A DNA stretch of 64,000 nucleotides from Deltaproteobacteria bacterium RIFCSPHIGHO2_01_FULL_43_49 (GCA_001798075.1 MGRG01000012.1:91852-155851); one strand, 5' to 3'. Counted from the stretch's first letter, positions 8,054 to 54,700 are shown. The notes: generated by a model not told the origin, from the sequence alone. Numbers and translations are program-made.

Positions 8054-8079
8054 AATAAAACCACTTCGCAGATAAGAAA

Positions 8080-8166: not shown

Positions 8167-8192
8167 AGGAACTGATTGCGTTTGTCCAATGG

Positions 8193-9018: not shown

Positions 9019-9025
9019 TCCTCTT

Positions 9026-28196: not shown

Positions 28197-28886
28197 TTAA
28201 AAGCGGTGGCTGATTTTTTCGGAAAGATCGTTAGCTTTAAAAGCAGCTAGCGTTCTGGCACAGGACTCGCAAACTCCACACATCTTTTCTTTTCCTTCGT
28301 AGCAACTCCAAAAATTATCGAGAGGAAGATCGAGTTCAATGAGTTTTGCAACCATCTCTTTTTTATTTATTTCTTGAACGTAGCTTTTAACTTTTGGAGG
28401 ATAAAGAAGGGTGGAGAGTTCCAGGGCGCGGTTTAGGCGATGGACATAATCAGAACTATTATCGGGAAAAGTGGCGGCCTCTTCGCGGTTAAAGCCGGTG
28501 ATAATCGTTGTTGCGCCTAAACTTTCCGCAAAAGAAGCCGCGATGTTTAAAAAAACGCCATTGCGGTTGGGGACCCAAACAGCCTCCGCTGATTTTTCGG
28601 TTGCCTTTTTGTCTTTGAGTTTTTCCAAATCGCTAAAACGGGGGAGCAAAGTCGTCGTATGGGTCAGGGCATTTTCACCTAAACTTTTAAGCCAAGGGAG
28701 TTCCACAACCTGATGTTTAATCCGCCAAAGCTTTGCGATTTTTTGTGCCGCTTTGGTTTCTTGGTTGGCTGCTCGCTGGCCGTAGTTGAAGGTAAGTGCC
28801 AAGACCACTTCATGATATTGCTTTGCAACGGCCGTCGAAAGGTAGGAATCTAATCCACCAGAAAGTAGAGTAACAGCGCGATCCAT
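28197..28886 (-). CDS. queC: 7-cyano-7-deazaguanine synthase
   Basis: PP-loop LLSGGLDSYLS and C-terminal zinc-binding cysteines (CGVCESCARTLAAF). Confidence 0.9.
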   Translation of the reverse strand: MDRAVTLLSGGLDSYLSTAVAKQYHEVVLALTFNYGQRAANQETKAAQKIAKLWRIKHQVVELPWLKSLGENALTHTTTLLPRFSDLEKLKDKKATEKSAEAVWVPNRNGVFLNIAASFAESLGATTIITGFNREEAATFPDNSSDYVHRLNRALELSTLLYPPKVKSYVQEINKKEMVAKLIELDLPLDNFWSCYEGKEKMCGVCESCARTLAAFKANDLSEKISHRF

Positions 28887-29402
28887 TTATCGTGCAGAAG
28901 GTCTTTTGCCTAAGCCTCTGAGCCTTTTTTCTAAATCGCCAAGTCTTACATTCAGCCTTGCTACATCTTTTCGGGTCGGAAAGTTGAGCATGGAGACCAA
29001 CTCAGAGCCTTTGTTCATCGCCAGCTTTTTGGCTTGTTTGGCCACATTGCTTTTTTCGATTTTGCTAAGGCAGGTTGCAAGACTTTTTTTGGCTTCTTTG
29101 ACCAGGCGGTTTCTATCAGGAAGGATATCGGCACGGCTTATCGTGTTTACGATTCCATCCGCAAAATATTTTACTTCTTTGGTAATCTGGTTTCTCTTTT
29201 TGAGGGCTAAGTGGATGATGTCGCGATGAGTTAGCCCTGTTAATTTCCTTTCCCACTTTGGTGGAAGGGTGTGTTTGAACTGCTTGTAGGCCCACTGAGC
29301 CTGTTTTTCGAGCGTGTTCAGGGCATGGTCAAAAGTTCTCAAACTGAGCGGAAACAGGCTGTGATTTCCTTTCCCTGCCCTCGCTTTGGTTCTTTTTTTC
29401 AT
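28887..29402 (-). CDS. hypothetical protein, possibly phasin-like
   Basis: Charged helical protein with C-terminal ARLNVRLGDLEKRLRGL reminiscent of phasin family C-termini. Weak. Confidence 0.35.
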   Translation of the reverse strand: MKKRTKARAGKGNHSLFPLSLRTFDHALNTLEKQAQWAYKQFKHTLPPKWERKLTGLTHRDIIHLALKKRNQITKEVKYFADGIVNTISRADILPDRNRLVKEAKKSLATCLSKIEKSNVAKQAKKLAMNKGSELVSMLNFPTRKDVARLNVRLGDLEKRLRGLGKRPSAR

Positions 29403-29513
29403 AGTTATCTCCTTGTTTTATATAGTAATCCTATACGTTATTACGCACCGTGTCAATTCCTGTTTTTAGCTTATTTTTTTGCCCCGTCAACCTGATTTAA
29501 ATCAGCTTTCAGC

Positions 29514-29544
29514 ATACCGCACGGTACCAGGTACCTGGCGGTAT
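29514..29544. repeat. REP-like palindrome (ATACCGCACGGTACCAGGTACCTGGCGGTAT)
   Basis: Near-perfect 31-bp palindrome abutting the RAYT stop codon. Confidence 0.8.
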
Positions 29545-30206
29545 TAGAGAACCACTTTTATTCGATTTGCAAGCCCATTTACTTGGTTCACCATCGCCGA
29601 AACCCGGCGTGATGTTGTCGCCTTAGATTCTTCCAAGAGGTTATGAGTTTTATCGGAAGGCAGCGGCGTCATAACAAGTTCTCTGTAAACTCTTTTACGT
29701 TTTTCATCATCGTTCACTAGGCCAAGGTAAGAAGGATGAAATTCTAATAATTCGTTTGGTGTGCCAAATGCATAGTAGGTATAACCACTCCATAACCAAT
29801 CTTCTGGTCTGATTACAAGTCCAGCAGATAGGGAGTTTCTATGCTGATAACGTAAACAAGCTAACGCATAGCGATCATTAGGAATGATATTGCTTCGATA
29901 TCGATGGGCCCAAAAGTGCCCGATTCTGTTATGCCGCTGATTAAAATCTTTAGCATATTTTAAACAAAGTTCCTGCATGATTTGGTCGATAAAATATCCC
30001 GTATGGGTGGAGAGGAGGAGATGGATATGCGAATGAAGCAGTTCATAATTATAAAGCCTGAATGCAAACTTCTCTTTAACCGCAGCTAACATTTCCAAGA
30101 ATATTTTGAAGTCTTCTTCTGTCTGAAGCAAATGCTCTTTGTTATTACATCGCAAAATGGTGTGATAATGAATGTCATCACCTTTGATTCGTGGCGCTCT
30201 AGGCAT
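29544..30206 (-). CDS. REP-associated tyrosine transposase (IS200/IS605 Y1 HUH family)
   Basis: HUH motif HSHIHLLL, conserved Tyr region (HFWAHRYRS), typical ~220-aa size. Confidence 0.85.
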   Translation of the reverse strand: MPRAPRIKGDDIHYHTILRCNNKEHLLQTEEDFKIFLEMLAAVKEKFAFRLYNYELLHSHIHLLLSTHTGYFIDQIMQELCLKYAKDFNQRHNRIGHFWAHRYRSNIIPNDRYALACLRYQHRNSLSAGLVIRPEDWLWSGYTYYAFGTPNELLEFHPSYLGLVNDDEKRKRVYRELVMTPLPSDKTHNLLEESKATTSRRVSAMVNQVNGLANRIKVVL

Positions 30207-30224
30207 GGCAAAACTCCTTTCCCA

Positions 30225-30283
30225 CTTACCGTGTGGTACCTGGTACCAGGCGGTACCGTGGGGTACCTGGTACCGAGTGGTAA
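30225..30283. repeat. REP-like palindrome doublet
   Basis: GTGGTACCTGGTACCAGGCGGTACC followed by GTGGGGTACCTGGTACCGAGTGGTA, directly upstream of the RAYT start. Confidence 0.8.
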
Positions 30284-30383
30284 TGCGAAAGGCGTGCCAA
30301 AATGAAAGGCTTTAGTTTTCAATAGGTTAGATTTTTTGGGGGTGCTGCAACTGACGAAATATGAACAGGTGCCGACGGATTTT

Positions 30384-30412
30384 TACCACCAGGTACCTGG
30401 TACCTGGTGGTA
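30384..30412. repeat. REP-like palindrome (TACCACCAGGTACCTGGTACCTGGTGGTA)
   Basis: Near-perfect palindrome sharing the GGTACC(W)GGTACC core. Confidence 0.8.
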
Positions 30413-30444
30413 TTTTTGGTGGTACTTTAAATTTCCTGATAAGT

Positions 30445-30963
30445 TCACTTAGGCTTCAGCCAGTCTATATTGACGTTGCTACCATCTGAGAGACGTGCAA
30501 GCACCACTCCGCTCAGCTGTTTAGTAAGTGCTAAAACAGTAGCAGTGTTGCCACCGGGTATAATTTTGTCTTTTTCTGGATTTTTCATTAAGTCTCTGTG
30601 ATTTACTTTAGAACCTACTATGAACTTTTCTCCAAACTTGTTTTCGGAGGATGTGATTCTAGGTATAATGGTTATTTTATTTCCATCAGAGAGAATTTCA
30701 GTTCCCGGATCAATATCTACAAATTTAATTTTAGGTGGCACTGTTCCAAAACGATTAACGATTGAGTTGTGGATGGCCTTTGCAGATATTCCTGTATATT
30801 TTGCCCACCCCGCCAAATCATAAATAGGCAGACCGTTGTCCTTAGCTATTTGTTCTACAAGTTTTCCCGCCTTTGCAGGATCGGTTACCACCCCTTGCTG
30901 TAGTAGAACGTCAGCTAATGTGTCTCCTTTTGATGCGACATAGCTAAAAATGGGGATAGTCAT
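30445..30963 (-). CDS. hypothetical protein with possible LysM-like N-terminus
   Basis: Intact ORF with ATG; YVASKGDTLADV is weakly LysM-like. Confidence 0.4.
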   Translation of the reverse strand: MTIPIFSYVASKGDTLADVLLQQGVVTDPAKAGKLVEQIAKDNGLPIYDLAGWAKYTGISAKAIHNSIVNRFGTVPPKIKFVDIDPGTEILSDGNKITIIPRITSSENKFGEKFIVGSKVNHRDLMKNPEKDKIIPGGNTATVLALTKQLSGVVLARLSDGSNVNIDWLKPK

Positions 30964-31234
30964 AACGTCCTCCTTTGTTGTACCAACATCAAATTACAGC
31001 AAATTGCGTGCCAAAACGTACGCACTTTTCGGGCCAGCCTCAGCATAAGAATTAGTTATGATTTTATTATGGTTTTTAGTTTCATTGAATTTTTACACAT
31101 GCTCAGAGCATCTCGGAATGGGTGAAAATGTACCATTTTTCTGCTGGAAACTTTTTTATTTTGGGGGCAACATTTCTATTGCTCAAAGTGTCATCAAAAT
31201 TTTGACGCTTTCCAATTTTATCTGACGATCAACA

Positions 31235-31335
31235 TCACTTCAAATCTTTAATCTTTAGCTGAATGGTTTTGATGTTGAGGTAGGTGTTCCATTGAGGGAC
31301 AAAGGCGATGTTGCCGCTACTTAGTGTTTACCGCC
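31235..31335 (-). pseudogene. duplicated 3' remnant of recJ (encodes ..GNIAFVPQWNTYLNIKTIQLKIKDLK*)
   Basis: Reverse-complement translation matches the true RecJ C-terminus (GGNVAFVPQWNTYQNQKTIQLKIKDLKRI*); about 80% nucleotide identity to 34118-34205 by eye. Confidence 0.7.
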
Positions 31336-31456
31336 AGATACCTAGTGGTACAGTGCACCAGATCCTGAATAGACACGTAGTGTCAACGCAATCGCCTGAG
31401 ATCGAATAGTTAATTATAACTTGACAGTATTTGAGGCCAAAATAGACTTGTGCTGT

Positions 31457-31849
31457 GTGAAAATTCTATTCGTTTGCGAATACAACGCTTGTCGGAGTCA
31501 GATAGCTGAGGGGCTGGCCCGTGCGCTCCTTCCGGAAAATTTTTCAATAACGAGTGCCGGTATTTATCCTGGTGAGTTGAATTGGGTCACCATTGAAGTA
31601 ATGAAGGAGATCGGGATCGACATCTCAACCCAGAGGTCCAAGTTGCTTGCAGAAGTATTGGACAGGCGTTTTGATCAAGTAATTGTCCTGGCAGAAGCGG
31701 CATGGAGGGCGGTCGAGATGTTAAAAACCGACCACAAATTGCTTTGGCCCTTTCCTGATCCAGCATGCGATCCCGGCGATGCCGAAGCGGTGAAAGGACG
31801 AATCCGCAGAGTTCGAGATCAGTTGAGAGAGAGGATTTTAACCCTATGA
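31457..31849 (+). CDS. low-molecular-weight phosphotyrosine phosphatase / arsenate reductase family protein
   Basis: CX5R P-loop VCEYNACRSQ near the N-terminus. Start taken at GTG 31457 (track start is TTG 31421). Stop overlaps the otsA start (ATGA). Confidence 0.7.
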   Translation: MKILFVCEYNACRSQIAEGLARALLPENFSITSAGIYPGELNWVTIEVMKEIGIDISTQRSKLLAEVLDRRFDQVIVLAEAAWRAVEMLKTDHKLLWPFPDPACDPGDAEAVKGRIRRVRDQLRERILTL

Positions 31850-34104
31850 AGTTTTCCCGTTTTGGGATTTTAGTCATCGGTTCTTTGCTGGTTGTTGTTG
31901 TCGGCATCTCTTTTATCCATTTTCAGCGAGAGCAGACCGCTCTTCGCGATGACCTCAACCGACGCGCCCGTGTGATCTCAAAAAGCCTCGCGCCGCCTGC
32001 AATCCGTATCTTGAAGAATCCCCCCGCCATTGACGAAGAAGACGTTGCGGAGCGGTTGGAGGGGCAGGGTCGTACTATCGGACTCATGATTTGCAACCTT
32101 GAGGGAAAACCGATCGCATTGTCGTCGACACTGACTGACACAGTAACCTGCAACGATGAGGTCATGGCCACGTTGGAAAGCGGAAAGGAATCTATTTTAC
32201 TGGATGAAATAGGGGGTCAGTCGCTCCACCGCCTGATTTTGCCATTGAAAGATCGCACCGGTTCTCTTCTTGGCACCCTTACCATCGTTCACGATTCCTC
32301 ATACATTACCAAACGGGTCACGTCCGCAGTCACCTGGATGACCCTCAGCCTCGCCATTTTGGCGATTGTCATTGCTCTTGGAACCTATCTTGCCTCTCGT
32401 CGCTCATTCCAAAGGTCGGTCACTCAGCTCCTCGACTGGATGAAATCATCGAAGAGTGCGGAAGACCTCCCTCCACCCACCGAATCTCTTTTGAGACCTG
32501 TCTCCAGGGAGGTTGAAAAGCTGACCGCGCGGCTACGGGCGGCCAAAGAGACAGCCAAAGAGGTTTCGGAGGCAAATCGTGTGAGTAATCTTTGGACTGG
32601 GGCACGACTCAAGGGTCACGCTACGTTTTCTATCGGAAATAAATCGCTGATCGTTGTTTCCAACCGGGAACCATACATGCATGTCAAGAAGGAGGGAAAA
32701 CAGCGAGTCATCATCCCTGCCAGCGGTCTTGTAACAGCCCTCGATCCCGTCCTTCGGGCGACGAGCGGTATCTGGATTGCCCACGGGTCAGGAGAAGAGG
32801 ACCGCGACTTTGTGAATAGTGAGGACAAGATTCTGGTACCGCCAGAGTCTCCGCTTTATACGCTTCGCCGGATCTGGCTCACGCGAGAAGAAGAAGAGCG
32901 ATACTATTATGGCTTCTCCAACGAGGCAGTCTGGCCCCTCTGCCATCTCACCCATCACCGTCCACATTTTGAGGAGAAGGACTGGCAGTCTTACATAAAG
33001 GTGAATGAGAAATTTGCCGACGCTGTCCTCCAAGAATGTGGCAAAGACCAACCGTTTGTCCTAGTTCAGGATTATCATTTTACCCTGCTCCCAAAGTTGA
33101 TTCGCGAGAGGCGGCCGGATGCCGTGGTTGGCCTTTTCTGGCACATTCCCTGGCCTACGCCTGAATCGTTTCAAATCTGTCCCTGGAAACGAGAGATATT
33201 GGAAGGGATGCTGGGAGCAAATTTTGTAGGTTTTCATCTGCAATCGTACTGCAACAACTTCCTGGACACTGTAAACAGCCTTCTCCCTGTGCGAATTGAT
33301 TGGGATCGACCTGGCATCCTTCACAATGAAGGCTTAACAACGGTCAAACCGTTTCCCATTGGCGTCCAGTTGTGGTCGGAGCGAGGAGTCGCTTCAGATG
33401 AGAGATTTCGGGAAAAAGCAAATATGTGGCGGAAGGAGTTGGAGTTAAATGCCAAGCGTCTGATCGTGAGCGTTGATCGGCTCGATTACACCAAGGGGAT
33501 TCCAGAGAGGATTGGTGCCATTGATCGGTTTTTGGAAAAGTATCCAGCCCATCGGGGAAAAGTTGTCTTTGTTCAACTTGCGGCCCCCAGCCGGGTTCAC
33601 ATCCCCCGTTACAGAGAATTTGTGACAGAGGTGGAGGGGCTTGTGGAACAAATCAATTGGAGACATGGGACAGAAGACTGGAAACCGATTCTTTTTCTCA
33701 AATCGCATCATGACCCCGAAACAGTTTATACCTTTCTGCGGATGGCCGATGTTTGCATCATTAGCTCTCTTTCAGACGGCATGAATCTTGTCGCCAAGGA
33801 ATTTGTCGCGGCGCGAGAAAAGGGAGATGGAGTGTTGATCCTTTCGGAATTTACCGGGGCCGCTCGGGAGTTTCAAGACGCGTTGCAGATCAATCCCTAT
33901 GCCCGTGCCGACTTTGCCGAGGTCATCAGGGTGGCCATTGAGATGCCGATGGAAGAGCAAAAAAAACGGATGAGCCGGATGAAAGCACAGGTCATAGAGC
34001 ACAATGTCTACGGATGGGCCGCGAATCTTATCACGGAAATGACTCAAACTGTAGAAGTCGGCATTTCATCCCGTCAAGATTTTCAAACAAGCAAGTACCT
34101 TTAA
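31846..34104 (+). CDS. otsA: trehalose-6-phosphate synthase (GT20) with ~265-aa N-terminal membrane-anchored extension
   Basis: GT20 catalytic region from about 32640 (LIVVSNREPY, FWHIPWPTPE, ANFVGFHLQSY); two predicted TM helices upstream (FGILVIGSLLVVVVGISFIHF; VTWMTLSLAILAIVIALGTYLA). Confidence 0.85.
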   Translation: MKFSRFGILVIGSLLVVVVGISFIHFQREQTALRDDLNRRARVISKSLAPPAIRILKNPPAIDEEDVAERLEGQGRTIGLMICNLEGKPIALSSTLTDTVTCNDEVMATLESGKESILLDEIGGQSLHRLILPLKDRTGSLLGTLTIVHDSSYITKRVTSAVTWMTLSLAILAIVIALGTYLASRRSFQRSVTQLLDWMKSSKSAEDLPPPTESLLRPVSREVEKLTARLRAAKETAKEVSEANRVSNLWTGARLKGHATFSIGNKSLIVVSNREPYMHVKKEGKQRVIIPASGLVTALDPVLRATSGIWIAHGSGEEDRDFVNSEDKILVPPESPLYTLRRIWLTREEEERYYYGFSNEAVWPLCHLTHHRPHFEEKDWQSYIKVNEKFADAVLQECGKDQPFVLVQDYHFTLLPKLIRERRPDAVVGLFWHIPWPTPESFQICPWKREILEGMLGANFVGFHLQSYCNNFLDTVNSLLPVRIDWDRPGILHNEGLTTVKPFPIGVQLWSERGVASDERFREKANMWRKELELNAKRLIVSVDRLDYTKGIPERIGAIDRFLEKYPAHRGKVVFVQLAAPSRVHIPRYREFVTEVEGLVEQINWRHGTEDWKPILFLKSHHDPETVYTFLRMADVCIISSLSDGMNLVAKEFVAAREKGDGVLILSEFTGAAREFQDALQINPYARADFAEVIRVAIEMPMEEQKKRMSRMKAQVIEHNVYGWAANLITEMTQTVEVGISSRQDFQTSKYL

Positions 34105-35807
34105 ATTCTTTTGAGGTCTTTTATCTTTAATTGGATTGTTTTTTGATTTTGGTAGGTGTTCCATTGGGGGACAAAGGCGACATTGCCCCCCTTAAGTGTC
34201 AACGGATGGTTGTTGCTCATATTAAACCCGATTGCTTCCAATGTGGTTTCCAAATCGGTCACTTTGAATTTCAAATGTTTTTCGCCCACGACACGCAAGT
34301 CATTAAATTTTAGATCGTTGCAGGCAAAAACCGGTTCTGGATTTTTGATTCCAAAAGGTTTGAGAGACCCCAATTCTTCAAGAAACTTTGCTTGAATGTC
34401 ATTTAATTTTAATTCGCAATCGATATTCAAGAAAGGCTTAAATGGTTCTTCCAAGACTTTTTGTTGGAGTGCCTTTTCGAAACGTTCTTCAAATTGGCTT
34501 AAATTTGTTAGCGAAACCGTAAGGCCGGCCGCTTGTTTGTGCCCACCAAATTGCTCTAGCAAATCGGAACAGGCCTCTAAAATTTCAACAATGTGTACTC
34601 CGGGAATGCTTCTTGCCGAACCTCTCGCAAAATCTTTTTCGATCGCCAAAGCAATAGAGGGGCGGTAATAATTTTCTGCGAGTTTGGAAGCGACCAATCC
34701 GACGATGCCCGGATGCCAATCTTTTGAAGAAACAACAAAACCGTTTTTTGCTAATTTATCTTCCGCCTGTCTAAAAGCTTCTCTCACATGTTTTTCCTGC
34801 ATCGCCTGTCTTTCTTGATTGCATTGGTCTAAAATCTTAGCAAGCTTACTAGCCCTTTCTAAATCGGCAGCACAAAGCAGATCCAAGCCCAGAGAGGCTT
34901 TGGCGATCCGACCACCGGCATTGATGCGGGGTGCTAATCGAAATCCAATATCGGATGGCTCCATGGTTTTACCGCCATCTAACTTACAGACTTCTTTCAG
35001 CGCGATGATGCCCATTTTTTTTGTGACTGCTAACTCTTTGAGCCCATAAGTCACCAAAATCCGGTTGATGCCGGTCAAGGGCGCTAAATCACCGACGGTT
35101 CCCAGTGCCACAAGATCTAAATGTTGCCTTAAGTTTGGCTCCCCATTTTTGAAGAGACCCTCCTCCCGCATTTTTTGACGTAGGGCTATGAGCAACATAA
35201 AAACAACACCGACACCGGCAAGCTCTCTGCCAGGTGTTCCTTCTTTCAACATCTGCGGATTGATGAAAGCAAAAGCAGGAGATTTCCTCGAATCCAATTC
35301 GTGATGATCGGTAACAATCACATCCAACCCATTTTTTTTAGCCCATTGAAGTGCATCCTGCGACTTTGTGCCGCAGTCGGCTGTAATAATGAGCGAAATC
35401 TTTTTGGCTTTCAGCTCCTCCAAGGCTTTGATATTGATTCCATAACCTTCTTGAATTCGGTCAGGGATATAAACAGTGAGGGGCAAGCTCAACTCAGTAA
35501 AAAATGTTTGAAGAAGTGCGGAAGAAGTAAGTCCATCGACATCATAGTCTCCATAAACAGCAATCGATTCTCGATTTTGGATGGCTTGAATCAAACGCCG
35601 GACAGCTTTTTCCATATCTGGAAAAAGAAAGGGGTTGGGCAAATCTTTTAAAGAAGGCTTCAAAAAAGCTTGTACCTTTTCTGGTTCGTCAATGCCACGA
35701 TTAATAAGGATTTGCGCAGTAACCCAAGAGATTCCCAGCGCTTCAGCTAAACGCTTCTGGAGTGATGGGTTAGGGGACGAAATCCTCCAGGTTTTTTGCA
35801 GGGGCAT
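34101..35807 (-). CDS. recJ: single-stranded-DNA-specific exonuclease RecJ
   Basis: DHH-family motifs (VYGDYDVDGLTS, DHHE) and RecJ-like overall sequence. Confidence 0.9.
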   Translation of the reverse strand: MPLQKTWRISSPNPSLQKRLAEALGISWVTAQILINRGIDEPEKVQAFLKPSLKDLPNPFLFPDMEKAVRRLIQAIQNRESIAVYGDYDVDGLTSSALLQTFFTELSLPLTVYIPDRIQEGYGINIKALEELKAKKISLIITADCGTKSQDALQWAKKNGLDVIVTDHHELDSRKSPAFAFINPQMLKEGTPGRELAGVGVVFMLLIALRQKMREEGLFKNGEPNLRQHLDLVALGTVGDLAPLTGINRILVTYGLKELAVTKKMGIIALKEVCKLDGGKTMEPSDIGFRLAPRINAGGRIAKASLGLDLLCAADLERASKLAKILDQCNQERQAMQEKHVREAFRQAEDKLAKNGFVVSSKDWHPGIVGLVASKLAENYYRPSIALAIEKDFARGSARSIPGVHIVEILEACSDLLEQFGGHKQAAGLTVSLTNLSQFEERFEKALQQKVLEEPFKPFLNIDCELKLNDIQAKFLEELGSLKPFGIKNPEPVFACNDLKFNDLRVVGEKHLKFKVTDLETTLEAIGFNMSNNHPLTLKGGNVAFVPQWNTYQNQKTIQLKIKDLKRI

Positions 35808-42211: not shown

Positions 42212-42300
42212 CTTGGTGAGTGGGTGGCCCGGAGTGTTTGTTGTGGGGTTTAGTTAGGGGCCCCCACAAAAACACGGAGGGACAGGCCCTACTCACCAAG
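42212..42300 (+). repeat. palindromic structured element, copy 1
   Basis: Conserved core TGGGTGGCCCGGAGTGTTTG.TGTGGGGTTTAGTTAGGGGCCCCCACA.AAACACGGAGGG.CAGG shared with 60460-60546; outer stem CTTGGTGAGT / ACTCACCAAG is complementary. Confidence 0.65.
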
Positions 42301-46415: not shown

Positions 46416-46445
46416 GAAGCAACTTTTTTGAGGATTTGCCGAAAA
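46416..46445 (+). promoter_or_regulatory. conserved 30-bp box copy 2 (GAAGCAACTTTTTTGAGGATTTGCCGAAAA), candidate promoter of the four-gene operon
   Basis: 27 of 30 identical to 42306-42335; ends about 20 nt before the operon start codon, followed by RBS AGGAGAGG. Confidence 0.35.
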
Positions 46446-46465
46446 CAATTAGGAGAGGTTTTTTA

Positions 46466-48046
46466 ATGGCTGAGAAGTGTCAATTAATTAGTAAATTATC
46501 AGTGTCACCCTCCATACTGCTCGGTAGTTTTCTTTATGATATCAGCAAGTTAGGTGGAAATCCTGGGGAGCTAGACACCTGTGACCTAAAGGTTTTCCAA
46601 AAGGAATTGGGTATTTCTTTGCCCCAAAAAGCATTTCTCGACAAATTTGGAAAAGGGGATTCGTTTAAACTCATTGAAGCCTCTGAATTTCTTTATAATC
46701 AGTATTTATATGCCCCCAACAATAAATATTATGCGTTTTACCCCAAATATTTCAGCAATCAGACCCATGCGGATCTCGCAGAAGTGGCTCTTCGTGACCT
46801 AAAAACGACCCTGGAACCTATCGTCGAAGTAGGAGTCCTCAAAAAAATTCCTATCTACGAGCGCATCTTGAAAGAACCGGCCCTGGCAGAATGGCTTTCT
46901 GTTGATGAAAAAGAAAAAATTGGAGCAGACATTGCAAAAATTCGTGAACTTTTTGAAGAAAAGAACTGGAAAGACCTCTACCCCCGCATGGACACTTTTG
47001 AAGTATCTCTCCCTGATTTGTACGAGACGATTAGCCAACGAGCTCAGGATAACGTTAAATTTTGGGAAAGGGCTGTTGTTGCAACGGAAGTTGTTCACAA
47101 TGTGTTATTTATCGGGGCCGGTGTTGCAGTGGGAATCGTTGCTGGCCCTGTGGCAGCTGTTGGTGCGACACTGGCATTCGGTTTATCTTCCCTCGCCTCC
47201 GAAGAAACTGCCAAAGCTATTTCACAAGATGACTATACATGGCAAAATGCTTTGAAATCTTTTGGCTATCACGCACCGTTTGATATTATCAAAAGTGCCG
47301 CTTTCCTATTTCCGCCACTCAAGGCTGCAACCATCTTTGTGGGAGCCACTTTTGTGGAAGTTGCGGCAGACCCATTTGGAGAACCGAAACCTGTTGTTGA
47401 CCGTTTGATTGATGGAGGTTTTTCAGCTCTGGTTGCAGCGGCCACTTTTTTCGTTGGGAAAAAAGCCGGCGAAAAACTGGGGCCTTATTTTGCAAAATAT
47501 TTTAGAAGAGCCATCCAGCCAGTTCCGGAGTCACCTCAACTTGTCAGACCAACAGTTGTTGAAACTCGAACGGCTACTTCTCCCTCGCCACCTGTTGAAC
47601 CGCCTCCTCCAAAAATGGAAGTGGAGCCTGCACCGCCACCCCCCACCCCCAAACCAAAAAGGGTCGAAGCCAGACCCAAAAATGGTGGCCCTAATGGAGC
47701 ATCGCATTCAGAGAAGGTCTTGCACACCATCAAGAAAACACGATTTGCAGAAGATTGTTTTGAAAAGCTCACACCGTTGGTTAAAGGAAAAATGGAGGAG
47801 TTTGTTGCAACACTCGTTAATAAATTAAATTTCGGAGTTCCTATTGCAAAAATTGCTAATGTCATGCGGAACAAGGATTTCGCCGGTGTTTGGGAAGGAC
47901 GTTTCATGTCTGCTAGCAATGCGAGAGTCTATTTTAAAATCACCGATGATCCCAATGGTTCCAAAATAGTTGAGATTCTCGGTTATTCTTTAGGAGAAGC
48001 CGATCGCATTGCTATTTTACAGCATTTTGCTGGTGGGAGGCATTAA
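46466..48046 (+). CDS. operon gene 1: membrane-type protein with Gly/Ala-rich hydrophobic segments, Pro-rich linker and RelE/ParE-like C-terminal domain
   Basis: ATG 46466 with AGGAGAGG RBS; hydrophobic segments (VLFIGAGVAVGIVAGPVAAVGATLAFGL; FSALVAAATFFVG); linker SPSPPVEPPPPKMEVEPAPPPPTPKPK; C-terminus AGVWEGRFMSASNARVYFKITDDPNGSKIVEILGYS resembles the RelE/ParE toxin pattern. Confidence 0.6.
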   Translation: MAEKCQLISKLSVSPSILLGSFLYDISKLGGNPGELDTCDLKVFQKELGISLPQKAFLDKFGKGDSFKLIEASEFLYNQYLYAPNNKYYAFYPKYFSNQTHADLAEVALRDLKTTLEPIVEVGVLKKIPIYERILKEPALAEWLSVDEKEKIGADIAKIRELFEEKNWKDLYPRMDTFEVSLPDLYETISQRAQDNVKFWERAVVATEVVHNVLFIGAGVAVGIVAGPVAAVGATLAFGLSSLASEETAKAISQDDYTWQNALKSFGYHAPFDIIKSAAFLFPPLKAATIFVGATFVEVAADPFGEPKPVVDRLIDGGFSALVAAATFFVGKKAGEKLGPYFAKYFRRAIQPVPESPQLVRPTVVETRTATSPSPPVEPPPPKMEVEPAPPPPTPKPKRVEARPKNGGPNGASHSEKVLHTIKKTRFAEDCFEKLTPLVKGKMEEFVATLVNKLNFGVPIAKIANVMRNKDFAGVWEGRFMSASNARVYFKITDDPNGSKIVEILGYSLGEADRIAILQHFAGGRH

Positions 48047-50418
48047 TGACCACTATTAATTTTGGCTTTATTGAAGCAGCCATCACTGCAGCCCAGGCAG
48101 CCCAAGCGGCTTCTAATAGGGCTGAATTAGATGCCGCATTGGAAAAATTGGGGAGGGCGATCCATCCCCTGGATACCTTTGCTGATGGCAATCTATCCCC
48201 CTTGGTGGAAAGGCTGACGAGTGGTAGAAGAGCTGTCACTGAAGCAGAACTGAATCAAGTTATCAGGACTATCAACGATGCCGGGGATAAATACCGGGCA
48301 AGTTCAGGCACAAAGGAATCAAAAGCCAGCAGTGCGCACACAGGGCACGGTGTTCATGGAAGCCCCAATCCTTATCTTATTCAAGTAGGTCAGTCTAAAA
48401 CTTTTTCCCCGCGCCCTAACCAAGCCTACATCGCACGGAAAGCAGTGAGCCATTTTAGAGAAGAACACAGAGGTTTTTTTCGCCTCGATACAGGTGAGGG
48501 TAAAACACCAACATACGGATTCATCATTCAAGAACTTCGCAAAGAACTTCCCGATGAATACCAAGAGGCACTTGTTGTCATGGGTTGCCATCAAGCAGAA
48601 CCCGCTCGCAAATTGGCAGAGACGATGAAACATATGTTTCGTGATGAAAAAATCATGTTTTTAGAGGGAGGTATTGAAGCAGAAGATTTTAAAAGAGTTA
48701 CTTTTGTGGTGGGGACCTATCAACAACTAGCACAAAAATCGAGTATTGACGTTTTGAAAGAATGGGCTGGTCAAAAAAGAATTCTTTTTGTCTTGGATGA
48801 AGCGGACATGGTTGTTTTCAAAGGTATTGCAGAAGATGAACATCGAATGGCTACTTGGATTCGTCTCTTGATCGACTTTGGAGTCTTTACACAACATGGG
48901 CATTATCTTGCCAGAACACGGCATCGACTGTTGGGGGCCTCTGCAACCCTTGATCGCCCTGATGAAATTTCTCTCTCAACTGTTTGGGGTCCTGGAAATG
49001 TTTTCTATCATACACCGATGGCAGAGGGGGTTCGGCGCGGCACTCTTGTGCCCGTGGTTGGTCATGTCTTAGAAATGGATGTTCCAGAAAAAGAAAAACA
49101 TCTCTTCAGGGATTTTACGAAGATTGTGGATGGTAAGATTGTGGTTGATAAAACAAAAGTGATGTCTGCCTGCGGCAGTGATCATGCTGTTAAAACATCG
49201 GTTCGAGCTGTGATCGATCATATGAAGATGAAGATTGGTGCTGGAACGACAAAGGGTGAAGCAGTGCGGCGTGGGATCGGTTATGCCATGGACACCACTG
49301 CCTTGGAAAAACACATGCGCTGGCAGCAAGAATTATTTGGGTTGGTAGAGGTTATTTTCCAAATTTATCAAGGCTTGGCTGCATCAAAACCAATGCATGT
49401 TGATACAATCCTCGCTCATCTTGGTGGTCTGGAGAAACTAGATGCGTTTGGTCAAACTTTAAAACGGTTTCTCTATGCTAGAGAATGGAAAACGGTGGAA
49501 TCCCTTTACAGAAAGGCGGTCAGTTCTTTAAAAAATGGGAGAAAAGAAGGTATTTCGGAATTGTTCACTACTCTCTATTCTATTTTGAATGTTGATGTTC
49601 GCAGAATCAAAGGAAGACCTTTGGTGGCCACGGCTGTCTGGCAAAGTATGGACATGGATCGTGAAGGCAAAAAAATTCCTCGTGAGGCTCGTCGCACTCA
49701 ATATCTCAACAAATTTGGTGATCGGGAACTAACGATGAAGGGCTTCAATGCTGGGGTGATCGACATGCTCTGGAGCATTGGGATGTTGGACAGAGGTTTC
49801 GACGAACCGATGGCAAGCTTAATTGTTGATAATGCCCCTAGTTCATCGAGAAGAGAAGTGGTGCAAAGGGCAGGCCGTATCATGCGACCACCCGACCCCA
49901 AAAATCCTAAAGATCATAGTCAAAAACCAGAATCTATTTATATTACACTGACACCCAATTTGGAAGCCCACCATCTCGATGTGGCCAGAAAAGATTTAGC
50001 CCGAGTTTTTGGTACCGAAGTAGATCCTGAGCTCAATATCATTAAGATTCGCCCTACCAAAGAAGGGGATTTTGAGTGGCGTACTCCCGATCCTGTTCAA
50101 CTTGATTTGGGAGGTGATAAAAAAGTCCATTTAGTGTTGGTTGGGGCTAGAACCGTGGAGGCATTGGTTCATTTTTTAAAAGGACGTTATGGGAAAGATT
50201 ATGATCCCGAAATTTTGGCCTTCGATGCCGGTGTTGGGGTTGAAGAAGTTGATGATTTATTGCGGGCCATTCGTTTTCCCAAGGAATCCAGATTACGTGC
50301 CTTTTTAAAAAATTGGCGTGCCGATGATGCAACAATCCACCAAATCATGGCAATCTATCACTCCGATCTTGCCGACATGAAAACGGTCTATGGTAACGCC
50401 TGGAGGATTGTGCAATGA
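48046..50418 (+). CDS. operon gene 2: SF2 helicase / ResIII-type ATPase
   Basis: Motif I LDTGEGKT (about 48490), motif II LDEADM (about 48796), motif III SAT (about 48934), motif VI QRAGRIMRP (about 49861). Start overlaps the gene 1 stop by 1 nt. Confidence 0.75.
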   Translation: MTTINFGFIEAAITAAQAAQAASNRAELDAALEKLGRAIHPLDTFADGNLSPLVERLTSGRRAVTEAELNQVIRTINDAGDKYRASSGTKESKASSAHTGHGVHGSPNPYLIQVGQSKTFSPRPNQAYIARKAVSHFREEHRGFFRLDTGEGKTPTYGFIIQELRKELPDEYQEALVVMGCHQAEPARKLAETMKHMFRDEKIMFLEGGIEAEDFKRVTFVVGTYQQLAQKSSIDVLKEWAGQKRILFVLDEADMVVFKGIAEDEHRMATWIRLLIDFGVFTQHGHYLARTRHRLLGASATLDRPDEISLSTVWGPGNVFYHTPMAEGVRRGTLVPVVGHVLEMDVPEKEKHLFRDFTKIVDGKIVVDKTKVMSACGSDHAVKTSVRAVIDHMKMKIGAGTTKGEAVRRGIGYAMDTTALEKHMRWQQELFGLVEVIFQIYQGLAASKPMHVDTILAHLGGLEKLDAFGQTLKRFLYAREWKTVESLYRKAVSSLKNGRKEGISELFTTLYSILNVDVRRIKGRPLVATAVWQSMDMDREGKKIPREARRTQYLNKFGDRELTMKGFNAGVIDMLWSIGMLDRGFDEPMASLIVDNAPSSSRREVVQRAGRIMRPPDPKNPKDHSQKPESIYITLTPNLEAHHLDVARKDLARVFGTEVDPELNIIKIRPTKEGDFEWRTPDPVQLDLGGDKKVHLVLVGARTVEALVHFLKGRYGKDYDPEILAFDAGVGVEEVDDLLRAIRFPKESRLRAFLKNWRADDATIHQIMAIYHSDLADMKTVYGNAWRIVQ

Positions 50419-51725
50419 GTGTAAGTGTTGTCACTCCTGCAGGATATGTTACCGGCCTACTTGGTAATCTGGAGACCCTAAGTGTTGCCGGTCAAGAATC
50501 AGACATTGCAGAGGTCTTAAACGATTTATTTCCTCAAGTAGATCGTCTTGGTAATGCTGAACTTGGACAGCGTTTAAAAAAAGTAGCAACCGCGTTGCAA
50601 AATGGTGATTATAAAAGAACTCAATGGTTACAATCTTCATTATATCGTGAACTCACTGATCTTCAAGCAGCACTCCAAAGTGGTCAAGCTATTGAAGAGG
50701 CATTGCAAGCAAGACAAGCTGCTCAAGCGTTAAAAAAAATAGAAGGACCAGGCGGCGGGCGATTTACCTCTTCCATTACTGCAAGACCAGTTCAAAGAGT
50801 TTCTGTTGGACCACCACCAGTCATTGAATGGGAGAAGTTTGGATCTAGAAGGTATCCTGCACCGCTCCCCCCAAGTGAAGAGGTGAATACAGCGGGCAGA
50901 CGATTGGCTTATGTTGTCAGTTACGTTGCCGGAATGGCAGGTCATGGGGAATTCACGGCTGATACAGAAGATTTTTATAGCATCAGTTCTGAGATGCGCA
51001 GACGTATCGAAAAAGCGTTATTCGTTCCCAAAGCATTGGGCCAGTTTCCAACACGGGATGCAAGATCGATTATTATCAAAGCCCATCAATTAGAGCCGCT
51101 TTATGGAAGATTAGTTCAAGAACTTCTGATCCAATCTATTTTTGAATCACAGGGTTGGTCGTTGGGCGTTCCACTCTCCGATGCCCCGTGGGATCTCTCT
51201 TTTTTGTATGCCTTGAGACGCTATGGTGCGATGCAGTTGTTGGCCTCCGAAGAGAAAGCAAAAGAAGTGTCGGAAGACAAAGCGCTCATTCGCGTTGTGC
51301 AAGGCAAAGTCAGTTTGGAAGCGGTGAACTGGCATCCAGGCAAAACCCGTCGCGAAGTTTTTGAGCCTTGGTTACAAGGGATAGCCAGCAGAAATGGTAA
51401 CAATGAAAAACTTTTAGAGAGACAACGCAAATATATTGGCGATGGAATTTTGCGTGCAACAAATTGGCAGCCTCCTCGCAATGGCGCTGGTTGGGAGCCG
51501 CAACTCCAATGGATGGTCAGGCGCTGGATTGCCCATTTTCATTTTGGTGCTTTGCCGGCCCGGGGACTTCCATTTAAAACCGATGTGATCATTCGTTTTG
51601 CAATGGCGAAACACCCAACAAAACTAGATTTAACTTTTGCGAGAGCTTTGTTGGCCATGATGCGTGATTATTATTCAAAGGCAGAATTACAAGCCATGGG
51701 GGATTTTATACCGAGGGATAAATGA
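50415..51725 (+). CDS. operon gene 3: hypothetical protein (436 aa)
   Basis: 4-nt overlap (ATGA) with the helicase stop; no recognisable motif. Confidence 0.6.
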   Translation: MSVSVVTPAGYVTGLLGNLETLSVAGQESDIAEVLNDLFPQVDRLGNAELGQRLKKVATALQNGDYKRTQWLQSSLYRELTDLQAALQSGQAIEEALQARQAAQALKKIEGPGGGRFTSSITARPVQRVSVGPPPVIEWEKFGSRRYPAPLPPSEEVNTAGRRLAYVVSYVAGMAGHGEFTADTEDFYSISSEMRRRIEKALFVPKALGQFPTRDARSIIIKAHQLEPLYGRLVQELLIQSIFESQGWSLGVPLSDAPWDLSFLYALRRYGAMQLLASEEKAKEVSEDKALIRVVQGKVSLEAVNWHPGKTRREVFEPWLQGIASRNGNNEKLLERQRKYIGDGILRATNWQPPRNGAGWEPQLQWMVRRWIAHFHFGALPARGLPFKTDVIIRFAMAKHPTKLDLTFARALLAMMRDYYSKAELQAMGDFIPRDK

Positions 51726-54700
51726 GTATTGTTATCTCAAGGGGTTTAGCAGCACTTCAGTCTCAGATGGCAGAAGGTCTTGCCCGACTAACAGCTGACA
51801 ATGCCGCACTTTTTCAACCAGATTCTTCGTCTTCTTATGAAAACCCTGCTTTGTTAGCTGCGCAACGTTACACAAAAGAAGAACCAAGGAAAATTTCGCC
51901 CGGCATTTTCCTTCACGACATGCACGGGGCCTTGAAAAAAGTTGCCGGTTCTCGTTTCGTTGCTAAAACTCCAGAGAATGAAGACAAAGCATTTTTAAGG
52001 GCTATCGTGGGTGGTCTTTCCCTCTTTTTGGGGAAAATGGACGCGCAAAGTGAAACAGAGATTGCAGGAATGGTAGATCAAGTAATCTCGCAGATTGCAG
52101 ACCCTGCCATTCAAAAGCTTATTTTGGGTGCCGGCATTGCATTGCCAACTTCTTCCACAACGTCTGTAGCTGTTTCAGCTCCTTTAACGGTCTTGCCACC
52201 TGTTGTAGCCGCACCACAACCTCCTGCTCCAACTGTTGCTGCTCCTATCACGACAACTCTTACCCCTTTTGACTATCATCCAAACAGTGAAGAGAGGTTG
52301 GATGCTGAGTTTGAATATCGTCTCGCGAATGTTCACCAGCGCATTCAAGATGCAAATATTTCCTGGCCCTATGATTTTGTCAGATGGTGTCGCTCCCTTT
52401 ATCTTTTGGCAGGTGAGTTGCCAAATGGAGATGCAGCAAGGGTACGTGGAAATATCACCCGTGGTTTAAGAAGAATCAACGAGTTAGCCTCCATCAGTGT
52501 CGAAGATATTCGTCGCCTGTTAGGTCCTTCTGCGATGGCAGTGGGTCGTTACCCCGAAGGAATTTCGCAAGATTGGCCACGAGATATATCCAATGATTTT
52601 GGTTCTGCCATTATTGCTGTCCACGATGTCGGTGAAACTGTCATTGCCAACAAAGCAGCCCTCCTCTGGAAGGCAAGCACTGGCTTAGAAAATCAAGATG
52701 AGATTAGAGGTGATTTGGTTTCGATCCTGCGTCGTTTCGAAATAGCTTTGTTATCGGGAAGAGAAACAGATCATGAGGAAATAGAAAAAGCGCTTGATGA
52801 AATTGCGTTGAAAATTCCGGAAGCCAAACGCCCGGAAATGTTCTTAAAGAAAGAAACAGTACCACAGCCTTCACCCATCCCGTTAGAACCCATGTCGCAA
52901 GCAGAGTGGGTACAAAAAAGTTTGGATTTTTTGGTTTATGAAAAATCAAAATGGGGAAGTATGGAAGGAGAACTCTCCAATCAATTAGAGCATCTTTTTA
53001 AATTATTGAAAGTCGAAGAGGCTTTAGCACCACGTGCACCAGAGCTGTTGGGATTGGCATTTCAACTGATGTTATCTTATCGCCAGATGGTGGGGGTATC
53101 CGGAATAGAAGCTTTGGCATTGGGTAAAGATCCCAGCCTACCGATCAGTTTTGAAGACAGGGCTAAAGCCTTTGACATGATGAAGGCTGCCCACAACCAG
53201 CTCGATCTTCTTCAAGAGTGGGGTGATGCCTATAATAAAGATCCAAAAGCTTATCAACCGTTGTTCGGTGAAAATGGTCTTGCCGAAATAGTCTCTCGCT
53301 ACATCGTTCATGCTCGAGGAGGATCCCAAAACCCACTTGAAGAAGCGAGTGGAAATTTTGTTCAAGCACACCCTGAGTTGAAACTTTCAACTGCTATGGC
53401 CCGCAGGTTACTATCCTATTTTGTTGGGCTAACAGATGGAACTTTTAACGAGGCTTTCTTACAAGAAGTGTTAGGGGCCAAACCTAAGGCTCAAGAAGCG
53501 GCTGGACCAGAGCTTGATTTAGAAAATACCCCATTTTTGGATGTTGATCCAAATAAATACACTCCCTATGGGCGCGTTTTTGGAAAAGTTGTTCTGGATG
53601 GAGGAGTCATCCGAGTAGGCGGTGGCAAAAATAGACCTGGGATCTTTTTTGGGATTTATTTGACAACCTTAGAAAAGATTTACCGAAAATACCGTGAACA
53701 AGTTCGCACATCCGGTAGCAGTAGTTTCGAGTCGGCCTATACATTGGCCGTGAAGCAGGAAAAATATCAAGAAAGATATAGAAAAGACTATGAAAAATTG
53801 TTTGGGGATCTTCTTAGATTGCTGGGTGAAAATAAGGATATGGCCGATTTGGTGGAAACAGCAATTTTGTCTGGTAAGACTCAGTTAAAGGTACCTGAAA
53901 AGCAAGCAATACCTACAAGTGGCGGCCCTCCCATGGAACGACCTGTGGAAGAGGCGCCTACTGCAGCGCTAGCGCCAACACCAGCTCCAGTTTCAGTACC
54001 ACCATCGGTTGAAGTATCGAGACCAGCTGCAACAAGGGTTGATGAAGCCGTCTTTGCCGGTGCCGCACTCGTTTCACCCGATGCTCCTCCTGCCGAAGCT
54101 AACCCCTTTATCGAAGCAGCTGCAATAGTATCAGAGTTTGTTCCACCCCCAGCAGAGGTAGTTGTATCTTCAGGAGTTGCCGTAGTCGAAGTGCCACCAC
54201 CTGTTGAAACAGCGACAATTCCAGCGATCGAAGAAGAAATATTAATTGTAGATGAAGTAGAGGTAGAAACATTTCCAGCGATTCTAGCCCCCTATATTAC
54301 TAAATGGTCCCTGGGTGAAGTTGAGAAAAAAGTATTGCAAGATATGTGCGCGGTAACTTCACCAGAAGCTGTTTTGAAAGCTCTGGATAATATTGAACAA
54401 AACAGTTGGGAGAGTGAGGAGCGAAAAAGAAAGATTCTGACAGAATATGCAAGGGCTTTAGAACTTGGAAGAATAACAGAGAGAGGTAAAAAAAGAGTTG
54501 TAGAGCTTCTGGCCTCTAAGGAAAATTTTGGGAGGGTGAGACTTCTCCTATCTGTTGCCGCTGCAAAACCGACCAGTCTGGTTTTGGATCAGATTATTCC
54601 AGACCCCATTCAGTTGGGCAAAAAGGGGGGGCGATATCTAGATATTGACTTTAAATCTTACCCTCCTGTAGCTGTGGTTCGGCCTGCAATCACTCTTGCA

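Follow-up and report, generated by a model that had tools for sequence, protein, structure and literature searches.

The 3′ end of recJ is present twice in the window, that is, in the whole 64,000-nucleotide stretch of DNA that was analysed, and one of the two copies derives from the recJ of another lineage. The copies flank an ArsC-like phosphatase gene and an otsA-like gene, and they are a recombination scar of known type, not the mark of a new integration system. The history preferred here, which stands an even chance of being correct, is a homology-anchored additive import with one illegitimate join at a hotspot between recJ and the queC side.

Two diverged copies of the recJ 3′ end

The recJ gene (34101–35807, minus strand) is intact and encodes 568 amino acids with the Pfam domains DHH, DHHA1 and RecJ_OB; secF, secD, yajC, tgt and queA upstream of it are syntenic in relatives. 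Its functional last 30 codons before a KRI-stop tail constitute copy B (34110–34199, minus strand), and copy A (31235–31327, minus strand), made up of 30 codons and a stop codon, is a relic of such an end in a displaced position. The direct repeat formed by 31245–31327 and 34117–34199 extends over 83 nt without gaps and has 64 matches (77%; blastn E 1.4e-11). Copy A encodes the peptide TLSSGNIAFVPQWNTYLNIKTIQLKIKDLK (31238–31327; stop codon at 31235–31237) and the RecJ C-terminus reads TLKGGNVAFVPQWNTYQNQKTIQLKIKDLKRI, likewise followed by a stop; the two copies are identical at 25 of 30 residues (83%; tblastn E 3.6e-13). Over both strands of the whole window, the next-best ungapped match of the repeat 83-mer reaches 42/83, and against the window background (mean 21.4, sd 4.1) the repeat itself stands at a z of about 10. 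The duplication of the recJ 3′ end that the sequence-only reading had placed at 31235–31335 is therefore real, but the homologous stretch measures 83–90 nt and not 101 nt. Because a TAA immediately precedes copy A and a start codon is lacking, this copy lies outside any longer ORF, and neither a frameshift nor an internal stop is present across its 30 codons. Five identical nucleotides (ACACT) form the edge of the repeat on its 5′ side; a 16-nt identical block is internal to it and equally conserved in a 64% relative (L055).

The stop codons of otsA and recJ do overlap, in the TTAA at 34101–34104, as had been noted. The view of this overlap as the mark of a precise insertion is rejected, since convergent genes in this genome usually sit so: of 11 convergent gene pairs across the window, 10 overlap or are at most 14 nt apart, and four have the same 4-nt overlap.

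The differences between copies A and B are mostly synonymous (pS 0.74, which is saturated; pN 0.13). When copy A was simulated to drift neutrally after a local duplication, so few non-synonymous changes were seen in 0 of about 900–1100 matched runs, and in simulations purifying selection on both copies fits the divergence. The rejection of neutral decay indicates that both copies once ended working recJ genes in separate lineages. Their peptide identity exceeds that to any sampled relative (at most 73%), which places the donor closer than all of these relatives, consistent with the 88% protein identity between otsA and its nearest homologue (L051). By our own count over the 30 codons, GC3 is about 60% in copy A and about 50% in copy B, with 0.42 for recJ; the higher value of copy A points weakly against copy B as the import.

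The functional recJ may itself be a mosaic, with a change at about residue 501 that would precede the repeat boundary. Over the final ~66 residues of RecJ the similarity to one relative, P0003, is unusually high, and maximum-chi-square analysis puts a breakpoint near residue 501 with permutation p values of 0.02 (P0002 vs P0003) and 0.0015 (P0006 vs P0003). The excess identity between the window protein and P0003 at residues 501–536 ranks second of 231 pairs, with a z of about 2 after per-sequence correction. These values are no more than suggestive of a possible foreign tract, which would cover residues ~501–568 (34101–34305, minus strand) and reach about 36 codons further upstream than the repeat. 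From residue 501 onward, P0003 may simply be conservative in its RecJ.

A second locus and the search for integration machinery

A similar footprint had been reported for a cassette array at 7065–9373, and this likeness is borne out: displaced 3′ ends with mainly synonymous differences occur there as well. The 3′ end of a 115-aa gene on the minus strand (9026–9373) recurs in two displaced copies (8082–8159 and 7405–7482), so that a 78-nt repeat recurs at 7405–7482, 8082–8159 and 9028–9105, and toxin-antitoxin-like cassettes are interleaved with these copies. The displaced copies retain the peptide and the stop codon, and their differences have a p of about 0.004–0.01 under simulated neutral decay.

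The further proposal that one undescribed integration mechanism may act at both sites is not supported: the two loci share no motif, hairpin or common repeat length, no recombinase was found among the ORFs scanned, and known processes give exactly such a scar. First, the search for a motif common to the recJ and array repeat families gave none, 797 of 1000 shuffles scoring as well, and the repeats are of unequal length (about 45, 85 and 90 nt). Second, neither family folds into a hairpin (single-strand folding z from −0.5 to +1.6). Third, no integrase or recombinase is found in the segment that the recJ repeats enclose, in the 10 kb to either side of it, or in the scanned window ORFs of at least 120 aa, which are all such ORFs minus the last two (61500–63982). 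A search for viral or plasmid relatives of the segment gave none. That the three joins all lie 45–90 nt inside gene ends could be an observation bias, and a site-specific process would suit this pattern as well.

Two known systems do not fit. The 7–9 kb array resembles integron cassette arrays in its small co-oriented cassettes, often toxin-antitoxin-like and each followed by a repeat, but an intI integrase is absent, and the repeats are diverged coding 3′ ends of variable length without attC-type hairpins. For a diversity-generating retroelement, no reverse transcriptase is found within 10 kb on either side of the recJ locus, and the mismatches between the copies, which should then be confined to adenines of one copy, are in many cases C/T, C/G or G/T, with A in neither copy.

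The recJ–queC hotspot and how it may have been filled

On the far side of the segment lie a 171-aa gene (28887–29402) and queC (28197–28886; QueC Pfam 2.2e-55), both on the minus strand, and the 171-aa protein matches the products of recJ-downstream genes of relatives with blastp E values from 3e-23 to 4e-70. The junction between recJ and this w171-like gene is a recurrent insertion hotspot, since in three of five related loci (L050, L056 and the P0002 contig) recJ is followed immediately by the small gene, with queC next; in the other two (L048 and L055) unrelated cargo occupies this position, between recJ and the queC side. Insertion of a two-gene unit at the recJ 3′ end, as originally proposed, is thus supported by the cargo-free relatives, by the foreign composition of the unit and by the occurrence of otsA elsewhere without recJ: none of the 10 other otsA loci, including the closest one (L051), has recJ beside otsA. 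No donor genome with otsA adjoining recJ was found among these ten, which counts against the import preferred below.

The relatives without cargo have their recJ stop codon inside a conserved promoter box. An intact box, P1 (TTGACACGGTGCGTAATA; 29439–29456, minus strand), stands upstream of the w171-like gene and queC, and a decayed copy, P2 (ATGACACTTTGAGCAATA; 31177–31194, minus strand), lies 40 nt downstream of copy A and aligns to the box of the relatives; with up to 3 mismatches allowed, TTGACACNNTGCGTAATA is matched 3 times in the window, where 0.3 matches would be expected. Copy A thus keeps the ancestral downstream context and can be read as the displaced resident end of recJ. All 24 contigs read with an identical RecJ have the same gene neighbours, insert included, and the direction of import, with copy B as the incoming end, is read from context because no empty-site or polymorphic strain occurs among these assembled contigs.

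In the import that we prefer, the donor would be a related lineage of about 50% GC with an ArsC-like/otsA pair immediately after its own recJ, and the incoming piece would comprise the end of the donor recJ and the two cargo genes. At one end, homologous recombination would take place inside recJ, with a crossover that probably lies about 200 nt short of the stop codon, near codon 500. At the other, non-homologous end, an illegitimate join would be made 90 nt before the resident stop, where a REP-like palindrome (REP5) now sits. As the outcome, recJ would now end in donor sequence (copy B), and the final 30 codons of the resident gene, together with what is left of the promoter box, would have been moved 2.9 kb downstream as an untranslated relic (copy A and P2).

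This history has precedents. Homology-facilitated illegitimate recombination, in which one homologous anchor and one illegitimate join add kilobase-scale foreign DNA beside the anchor, was demonstrated with laboratory constructs in the transformable bacteria Acinetobacter, S. pneumoniae and P. stutzeri, in work cited by a study of displacement arrays (references in PMC5361080); those cases are experimental, whereas at recJ the process would be read from its scar. The same mechanism has been proposed for the displaced 3′ ends in rhs, cdiA (CDI) and T6SS effector-immunity arrays, where new 3′ ends and cargo enter via upstream homology, old ends and their linked genes are shifted downstream, and arrays grow through successive events of this kind with no recombinase involved (PMC5361080). 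The recJ locus shares with these a new 3′ end with linked cargo, an old 3′ end downstream and the lack of a recombinase. They differ in that the genes there are polymorphic toxins, whose displaced end is a functional variable module with a co-oriented immunity gene, whereas here recJ and one small lysine-rich gene are the targets, their 3′ end only rides along, and the cargo has the convergent orientation.

The main alternative, possible though unlikely, is a decayed integrase element of the e14/phage 21 type, which would have integrated site-specifically into recJ and whose att site would bring a substitute recJ 3′ end and displace the native one; its integrase gene would later have been deleted, or the element would be non-autonomous and use a recombinase encoded elsewhere, and the cassette array would represent repeated integration at one site. 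In E. coli K-12, e14/phage 21 in icd has duplicated the icd 3′ end and left the icdC pseudogene; the functional end comes from the incoming DNA with mostly synonymous differences, and the native end is a short pseudogene on the far side (PMC13626634). As in icd/icdC, a housekeeping gene has a direct repeat of its 3′ end with a mostly synonymous, foreign functional end and a displaced native fragment beyond the insert (PMC13626634); retention of the native downstream context by copy A is predicted too, and the tandem accretion and toxin-antitoxin cargo of the array are typical of mobile islands. However, e14 is a prophage of 15 kb that encodes an integrase and excises on SOS induction, whereas the insert at recJ is 2.8 kb, the inserted units at the two loci are merely 0.7–2.8 kb with the unequal repeats given above, and neither the recombinase scan nor the search for viral or plasmid relatives found anything. 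Identity at the 5′ edge of the repeat is limited to 5 bases, the internal block is equally conserved in the 64% relative, the two loci lack a common motif, and the foreign tract in recJ may reach beyond the repeat.

The same mechanism could have run in the opposite direction, with copy B native and copy A imported, but this is improbable. The imported fragment would comprise a foreign recJ end, a promoter box, a 172-aa ORF and a Y1 transposase unit, with its homology anchor on the queC side and an illegitimate join beside an already resident otsA pair. The 172-aa ORF (30445–30963, minus strand; GC 0.407), itself part of the inserted material, has no homologues outside its own cluster, and everything between copy A and the transposase unit, these included, is AT-rich (GC 0.37–0.41), both of which speak for this direction; since the hotspot cargo varies among relatives, fragments spanning the hotspot would naturally end inside recJ, and the GC3 of copy A is further from that of recJ than is the GC3 of copy B. 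On the other hand, a donor already having two promoter boxes is required, a foreign unit of REP5 and transposase is no simpler when REPs are absent from the nine related loci scanned, and the functional end of recJ, with its hint of foreign ancestry, speaks for copy B as the imported one.

Still less probable is a role for the Y1 (RAYT-like) transposase or REP hairpins, whereby the otsA pair or the recJ fragment would have been relocated or captured through cleavage or recombination at REP5. The transposase unit (29495–30432, minus strand; gene at 29544–30206, Pfam Y1_Tnp 3.8e-14) is bounded by 49-nt inverted repeats containing REP-like palindromes, and REP5 (TACCGCCAGATACCTAGTGGTA; 31329–31350), of the same family, is separated by 1 nt from copy A at the inner end of the latter. 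The five REP-like copies of the 64-kb window all lie within 1.9 kb of one another around the transposase gene, at the locus itself, and no such palindrome was found in the nine related loci scanned. The single Y1 transposase gene, with inverted palindromic flanks and a further copy nearby, recalls RAYT/REP (REPIN) systems, but there are just five clustered copies in 64 kb, and the protein falls under the curated RAYT cut-off (NCBIfam REP_Tyr_transpos, 54 bits vs 80). Palindromes are plausible places for breaks and illegitimate joins, and REP5 lies at the breakpoint; however, the tie of the Y1 unit to the recJ-end duplication is positional only, the array has the same footprint without a REP at any of its junctions, and a copy from another lineage would be left unexplained. 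IS200/IS605 and RAYT transposition is not known to duplicate its target.

A local duplication of the recJ end at the time of insertion, for instance through replication slippage or as a long target-site duplication, after which the unused copy decayed, would be the simplest reading of a direct repeat flanking an insert, but it is hardly credible given the saturated synonymous divergence with so low a pN, the failure of every simulated history to match, the agreement of the array copies and the intact frame of copy A.

The ArsC-like/otsA cargo

The cargo consists of a 130-aa ArsC-like low-molecular-weight phosphatase gene (LMWPc; 31457–31849, plus strand; Pfam LMWPc 3.9e-14) and a gene for a 752-aa otsA-like trehalose-6-phosphate synthase (31846–34104, plus strand; Pfam Glyco_transf_20 2.4e-128, residues 266–732). 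The LMWPc gene starts at the GTG at 31457, where homology to relatives begins, and not at the TTG at 31421. Two features noticed earlier by inspection stand: the genes are coupled through an ATGA (LMWPc stop at 31847–31849, otsA ATG at 31846–31848), and they are GC-richer than their surroundings. GC and GC3 are 0.511 and 0.555 in otsA and 0.491 and 0.504 in LMWPc, 3–4 sd above the 27 other window genes (GC 0.446 ± 0.016, GC3 0.42 ± 0.04), and match the otsA genes of relatives with 49–51% GC. The closest otsA homologues are 88%, 76% and 68% identical, and the first of these (L051), whose DNA has about 51% GC, shares 81.6% DNA identity with the window gene. Ahead of the GT20 domain, the otsA product has an N-terminal extension of ~265 aa with two apparent hydrophobic segments, as read by eye, and it scores below the cut-offs of the NCBIfam OtsA models (TIGR02400, 443 bits vs 565).

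Identity of the LMWPc protein as a thioredoxin-coupled arsenate reductase ArsC is not supported (NCBIfam arsC_pI258_fam, 97 bits vs an equivalog cut-off of 174). The conserved partners of its gene are otsA, MscS and GH15, and not ars genes: LMWPc and otsA are directly paired in L051 as well, and in L052 and L053 they belong to one operon with MscS, or GH15 and MscS, in between. A promoter-like site, TTGACA-16-TAGACT (31421–31448, plus strand), lies just before the LMWPc start and matches the consensus at 10 of 12 positions, as a consensus match only. The cargo carried into the recJ–queC hotspot is probably an osmoadaptation module with its own predicted promoter.

The displaced recJ end and the genes beside it

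The last codons of recJ occur twice as a direct repeat (31245-31327 and 34117-34199), which aligns without gaps over 83 nt with 64 matches (blastn E 1.4e-11); the runner-up for this 83-mer elsewhere in the window, on both strands, reaches 42/83 (background 21.4 ± 4.1). Copy A (31238-31327, minus strand) translates to TLSSGNIAFVPQWNTYLNIKTIQLKIKDLK, then TGA, and copy B (34110-34199) is the terminus of RecJ itself, TLKGGNVAFVPQWNTYQNQKTIQLKIKDLKRI with its stop; 25 of the 30 residues are identical (tblastn E 3.6e-13). The duplication of the recJ 3′ end claimed in the sequence-only reading is thereby borne out. Copy A is a fragment, because a stop codon lies immediately upstream of it and a start codon is absent. 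No homology was found past the stop codons of the two copies.

Two plus-strand genes lie between the copies: one for a low-molecular-weight phosphatase that is ArsC-like with scores far under the family cut-offs (31457-31849, true start GTG 31457), and an otsA-like gene (31846-34104). Their proposed ATGA coupling was confirmed. So was their GC-richness, formerly a visual impression: otsA has a GC of 0.511 and a GC3 of 0.555 vs 0.446 ± 0.016 and 0.42 ± 0.04 in 27 other genes, and the phosphatase gene is also GC-rich relative to this genome. The overlap of the otsA and recJ stop codons is present as well (TTAA, 34101-34104), but it does not mark an insertion event: it is the norm of this genome, because 10 of the window's 11 convergent pairs overlap or are at most 14 nt apart, four of them with a 4-nt stop-stop overlap (TTAA in three, TTAG in one). 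The single wide gap between convergent genes in the window is the site of the cassette array. A chimeric otsA tail was rejected for want of clear evidence, the tail being variable in every homologue and of usual length here.

The gene pair is found at other loci of related genomes. In L051, the closest otsA locus, the phosphatase gene and otsA show the very same coupling as in the window, with 88% protein and 81.6% DNA identity (31457 to 34049) and no similarity in the flanks. In L052 the two are grouped with MscS, and in the MAG containing the related recJ locus L048 they lie on a different contig from recJ, in one operon with GH15 and MscS; recJ stood beside otsA in none of the 10 otsA loci examined. 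This linkage to an MscS channel gene and a GH15 trehalase-like gene in relatives, the GT20 domain that follows ~265 residues with two hydrophobic segments (by eye) in OtsA, the phosphatase, and a promoter-like site matched by sequence in front of the phosphatase gene (31421-31448) suggest that the cargo is a self-contained osmoadaptation (trehalose) module. Homologues of OtsA in the clade (L051, L052, L053; 730-790 aa) share a conserved N-terminal region of ~265 aa that seems to contain membrane segments (window 31846-32640), and their genes are linked to the ArsC-like phosphatase without otsB; the phosphatase might substitute for trehalose-6-phosphate phosphatase.

The recJ-queC interval and two recJ lineages

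Five recJ loci were read, from relatives whose RecJ proteins are 59-66% identical to that of the window. L050, L056 and the P0002 contig have the gene order secD, secF, recJ, small gene, queC, DUF366, in which the small gene and the 171-aa gene of the window (28887-29402) are homologues; this order, with recJ followed directly by the small gene and queC, supports the claim that a two-gene unit was inserted at the recJ 3′ end. Between recJ and the small gene, L048 (9674-13345) has a pair of Wzy_C genes along with a 208-aa gene, L055 (2989-5129) a nucleotidyltransferase gene and an AAA_14/DUF4143 ATPase gene, and the window otsA and the phosphatase gene together with an orphan 172-aa ORF, whose homologues are all within its own cluster, and the Y1 transposase unit. 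The cargoes of L048 and L055 are unrelated, and that of L048 includes a gene with collagen-like GPx repeats. The spot between recJ and the small gene and queC is an insertion hotspot. No second recJ end was found in L048, L050, L055 or L056. Scans of genomes and metagenomes for close relatives returned distant ones only (RecJ at most 40%, OtsA 41-49%), and strain variation was seen at neither the recJ locus nor the cassette array.

Over 30 codons, copies A and B show ~12 synonymous-only differences and 5 residue changes (pS 0.74, pN 0.13). In simulations of a local duplication followed by neutral drift of copy A and selection on copy B, matched for total divergence, so few non-synonymous changes arose in 0 of about 900-1100 runs; purifying selection on both copies recreated the observed pattern. 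Local duplication with decay is rejected on the codon pattern and the simulation, and one of the copies must therefore have ended a working recJ of another lineage until recently. Since A and B are 83% identical to each other and at most 73% to other sampled relatives, the donor lineage is closer than any of these relatives, in keeping with how close the otsA pair is to that of L051. In the repeat, the nearly identical central block (AFVPQWNTY codons) was rejected as a recombination core, since the 64% relative L055 conserves it just as well.

In cargo-free relatives a conserved promoter box, TTGACACnnTGCGTAAT, lies ahead of the small gene, and the recJ stop codon falls in its -35 hexamer; the TGA was seen there in both such relatives with DNA to inspect. 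The box stands ahead of the small gene and queC in all five related loci (L050 9700-9730; L056 5445-5475), and the RecJ tail of P0002 (…PLTHCVKIGSI) appears to be a read-through translation of it. The window has an intact box before the 171-aa gene (29439-29456) and a decayed second one, ATGACACTTTGAGCAATA, 40 nt downstream of copy A (31177-31194), 0.3 matches with at most 3 mismatches being expected per window. Therefore, copy A retains the ancestral downstream context, and copy B adjoins the cargo. Beside the intact box, 29457-29494 is collinear with the spacer that follows copy A, but as a third, very short recJ remnant it was not significant.

The body of RecJ also bears on the extent of the exchange. 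At informative sites up to residue 500, the window protein favors the relative P0002 over P0003 by 53 to 33; past this residue (the last ~66 residues) the affinity flips, with P0003 favored by 11 to 2, and 6 of the 7 informative sites in residues 501-536, outside the repeat, group with P0003. A max-chi2 permutation test gave p 0.02 for P0002 vs P0003 and 0.0015 with P0006 as the alternative, and the excess C-terminal identity of the window-P0003 pair ranks 2nd of 231 pairs, with z ~2 once per-sequence effects are removed. These values hint that the imported tract may reach beyond the repeat into recJ.

The cassette array and other features of the window

A three-cassette array (7065-9373), flanked by a fadB-like gene on one side and a lysine-rich 115-aa gene on the other, consists of a 111-aa gene of unknown function, a DUF4258 gene with an MqsA-like gene, and an 81-aa gene with an AbiEii-like (AbiEii/DUF6036) nucleotidyltransferase gene. 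Its 78-nt repeat is the coding 3′ end of the 115-aa gene (9026-9373, minus strand; terminus KIGRLDSYLSRLETIQKKTTQLAKSV with its stop). The convergent cassettes each precede a diverged copy of the last 15-27 codons of this gene, and the copies at 8082-8159 and 7405-7482 retain the peptide, with a stop codon at the equivalent position. They differ mainly by synonymous changes (pS 0.61, pN 0.15), and neutral decay is rejected (p ~0.004-0.01). The idea that the array and recJ carry the same footprint thus stands. The homology lengths are about 45 and 85 nt in the array vs 90 at recJ; no motif common to the two repeat families and no REP at the array junctions was found. The array was unchanged in 24/24 contigs read with an identical 115-aa gene. 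Of 1867 ORFs (stop to stop, 100 aa or longer) scanned in 918 kb of loci, only recJ and the array gave displaced ends that were clean, isolated and derived from real genes, and the remaining matches resembled paralogues, repeats or weak marginal matches.

Elsewhere in the window, a four-gene operon (46436-58015) encodes proteins of 536 aa, 790 aa (a ResIII/DEAD helicase with a weak PbeA-like match at its C-terminus), 436 aa and 1807 aa; Pfam/PADLOC gave an assignment for the helicase gene only, and a HepT/MNT toxin-antitoxin pair comes next. This operon may be an undescribed defence system. Two divergent promoter regions share a 74-nt intergenic repeat of 93% identity (42216-42289 and 60463-60536), one copy of which sits inside a 150-nt imperfect palindrome (60429-60578); a separate 59-nt palindrome (11747-11805) lies downstream of an ald-like gene.

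Possible routes of import

No integrase, resolvase or other recombinase was found between the repeats, within 10 kb on each side, or in the scanned window ORFs of at least 120 aa, the Pfam scan covering all of these ORFs but the last two (61500-63982). As possible targets, tRNA and tmRNA genes are absent from the window; Rfam families had no credible match in 28-36 kb, and viral and plasmid collections held no relative of the inserted segment. Integron-like hairpin sites were rejected, single-strand folding of the repeats being no better than that of shuffles, and an apparent att motif shared by the recJ and array repeats (GTT(T)CCA...GACAAA) was not significant. With shared motif, hairpins and recombinase all missing from these searches and a known recombination scar fitting the locus, the earlier suggestion of a new integration mechanism is unsupported.

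The data fit an additive import, in which homology in the flanking core gene would provide the anchor and an illegitimate join would close the opposite end. Such homology-anchored import would explain why the repeat is foreign and varies in length, why no recombinase was found, why copy A retains its ancestral context, and why recJ may be mosaic. T6SS effector-immunity arrays, rhs loci and CDI loci likewise contain displaced 3′ ends, for which this model has been proposed (PMC5361080); the displaced recJ end is comparable to them. The locus is a well-resolved new example of this already known type of scar.

The main competing explanation is an integrase element of the e14/icd type that has decayed or is non-autonomous. 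It would leave an identical kind of repeat (PMC13626634), but a recombinase that was lost or acts in trans has to be assumed, and foreign sequence on the upstream side of the repeat is not among its predictions. Import in the reverse direction is less probable, as is involvement of REP elements and the Y1 transposase. REP5 (31329-31350), a REP-like palindrome, and the inner end of copy A are 1 nt apart; the window's five such palindromes are all at 29.5-31.4 kb, the relatives of REP5 solely around the Y1 (IS200/RAYT-like) transposase gene (29544-30206); none was found in nine related loci scanned. The Y1 unit (29495-30432) is bounded by 49-nt inverted repeats, which terminate in ATTTAAAT and hold GGTACC-centred palindromes. 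There is also a slight chance that, in this uncultured lineage, the small recombinase-less cargo units (0.7-2.8 kb) are true mobile cassettes that target coding 3′ ends by an undescribed trans-acting or homology-guided mechanism; the short targeting arm of each would then be the last 15-30 codons of a core gene in a diverged copy, and units would stack at the 3′ ends of chosen genes, an accretion like that of integrons but with coding 3′ ends in place of attC sites.

Read as homology-anchored import, the locus reveals no new molecular machine; it records, as a clean scar that can be dated, how an uncultured groundwater bacterium acquired genes horizontally. Related lineages have swapped the accessory genes of the hotspot along with part of the core gene next to it, and recJ is therefore probably a chimera. 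The occurrence of two loci with displaced 3′ ends within 64 kb suggests that the process is frequent in this lineage, and displaced 3′ ends with a signature of purifying selection offer a cheap, sequence-only marker of import events.
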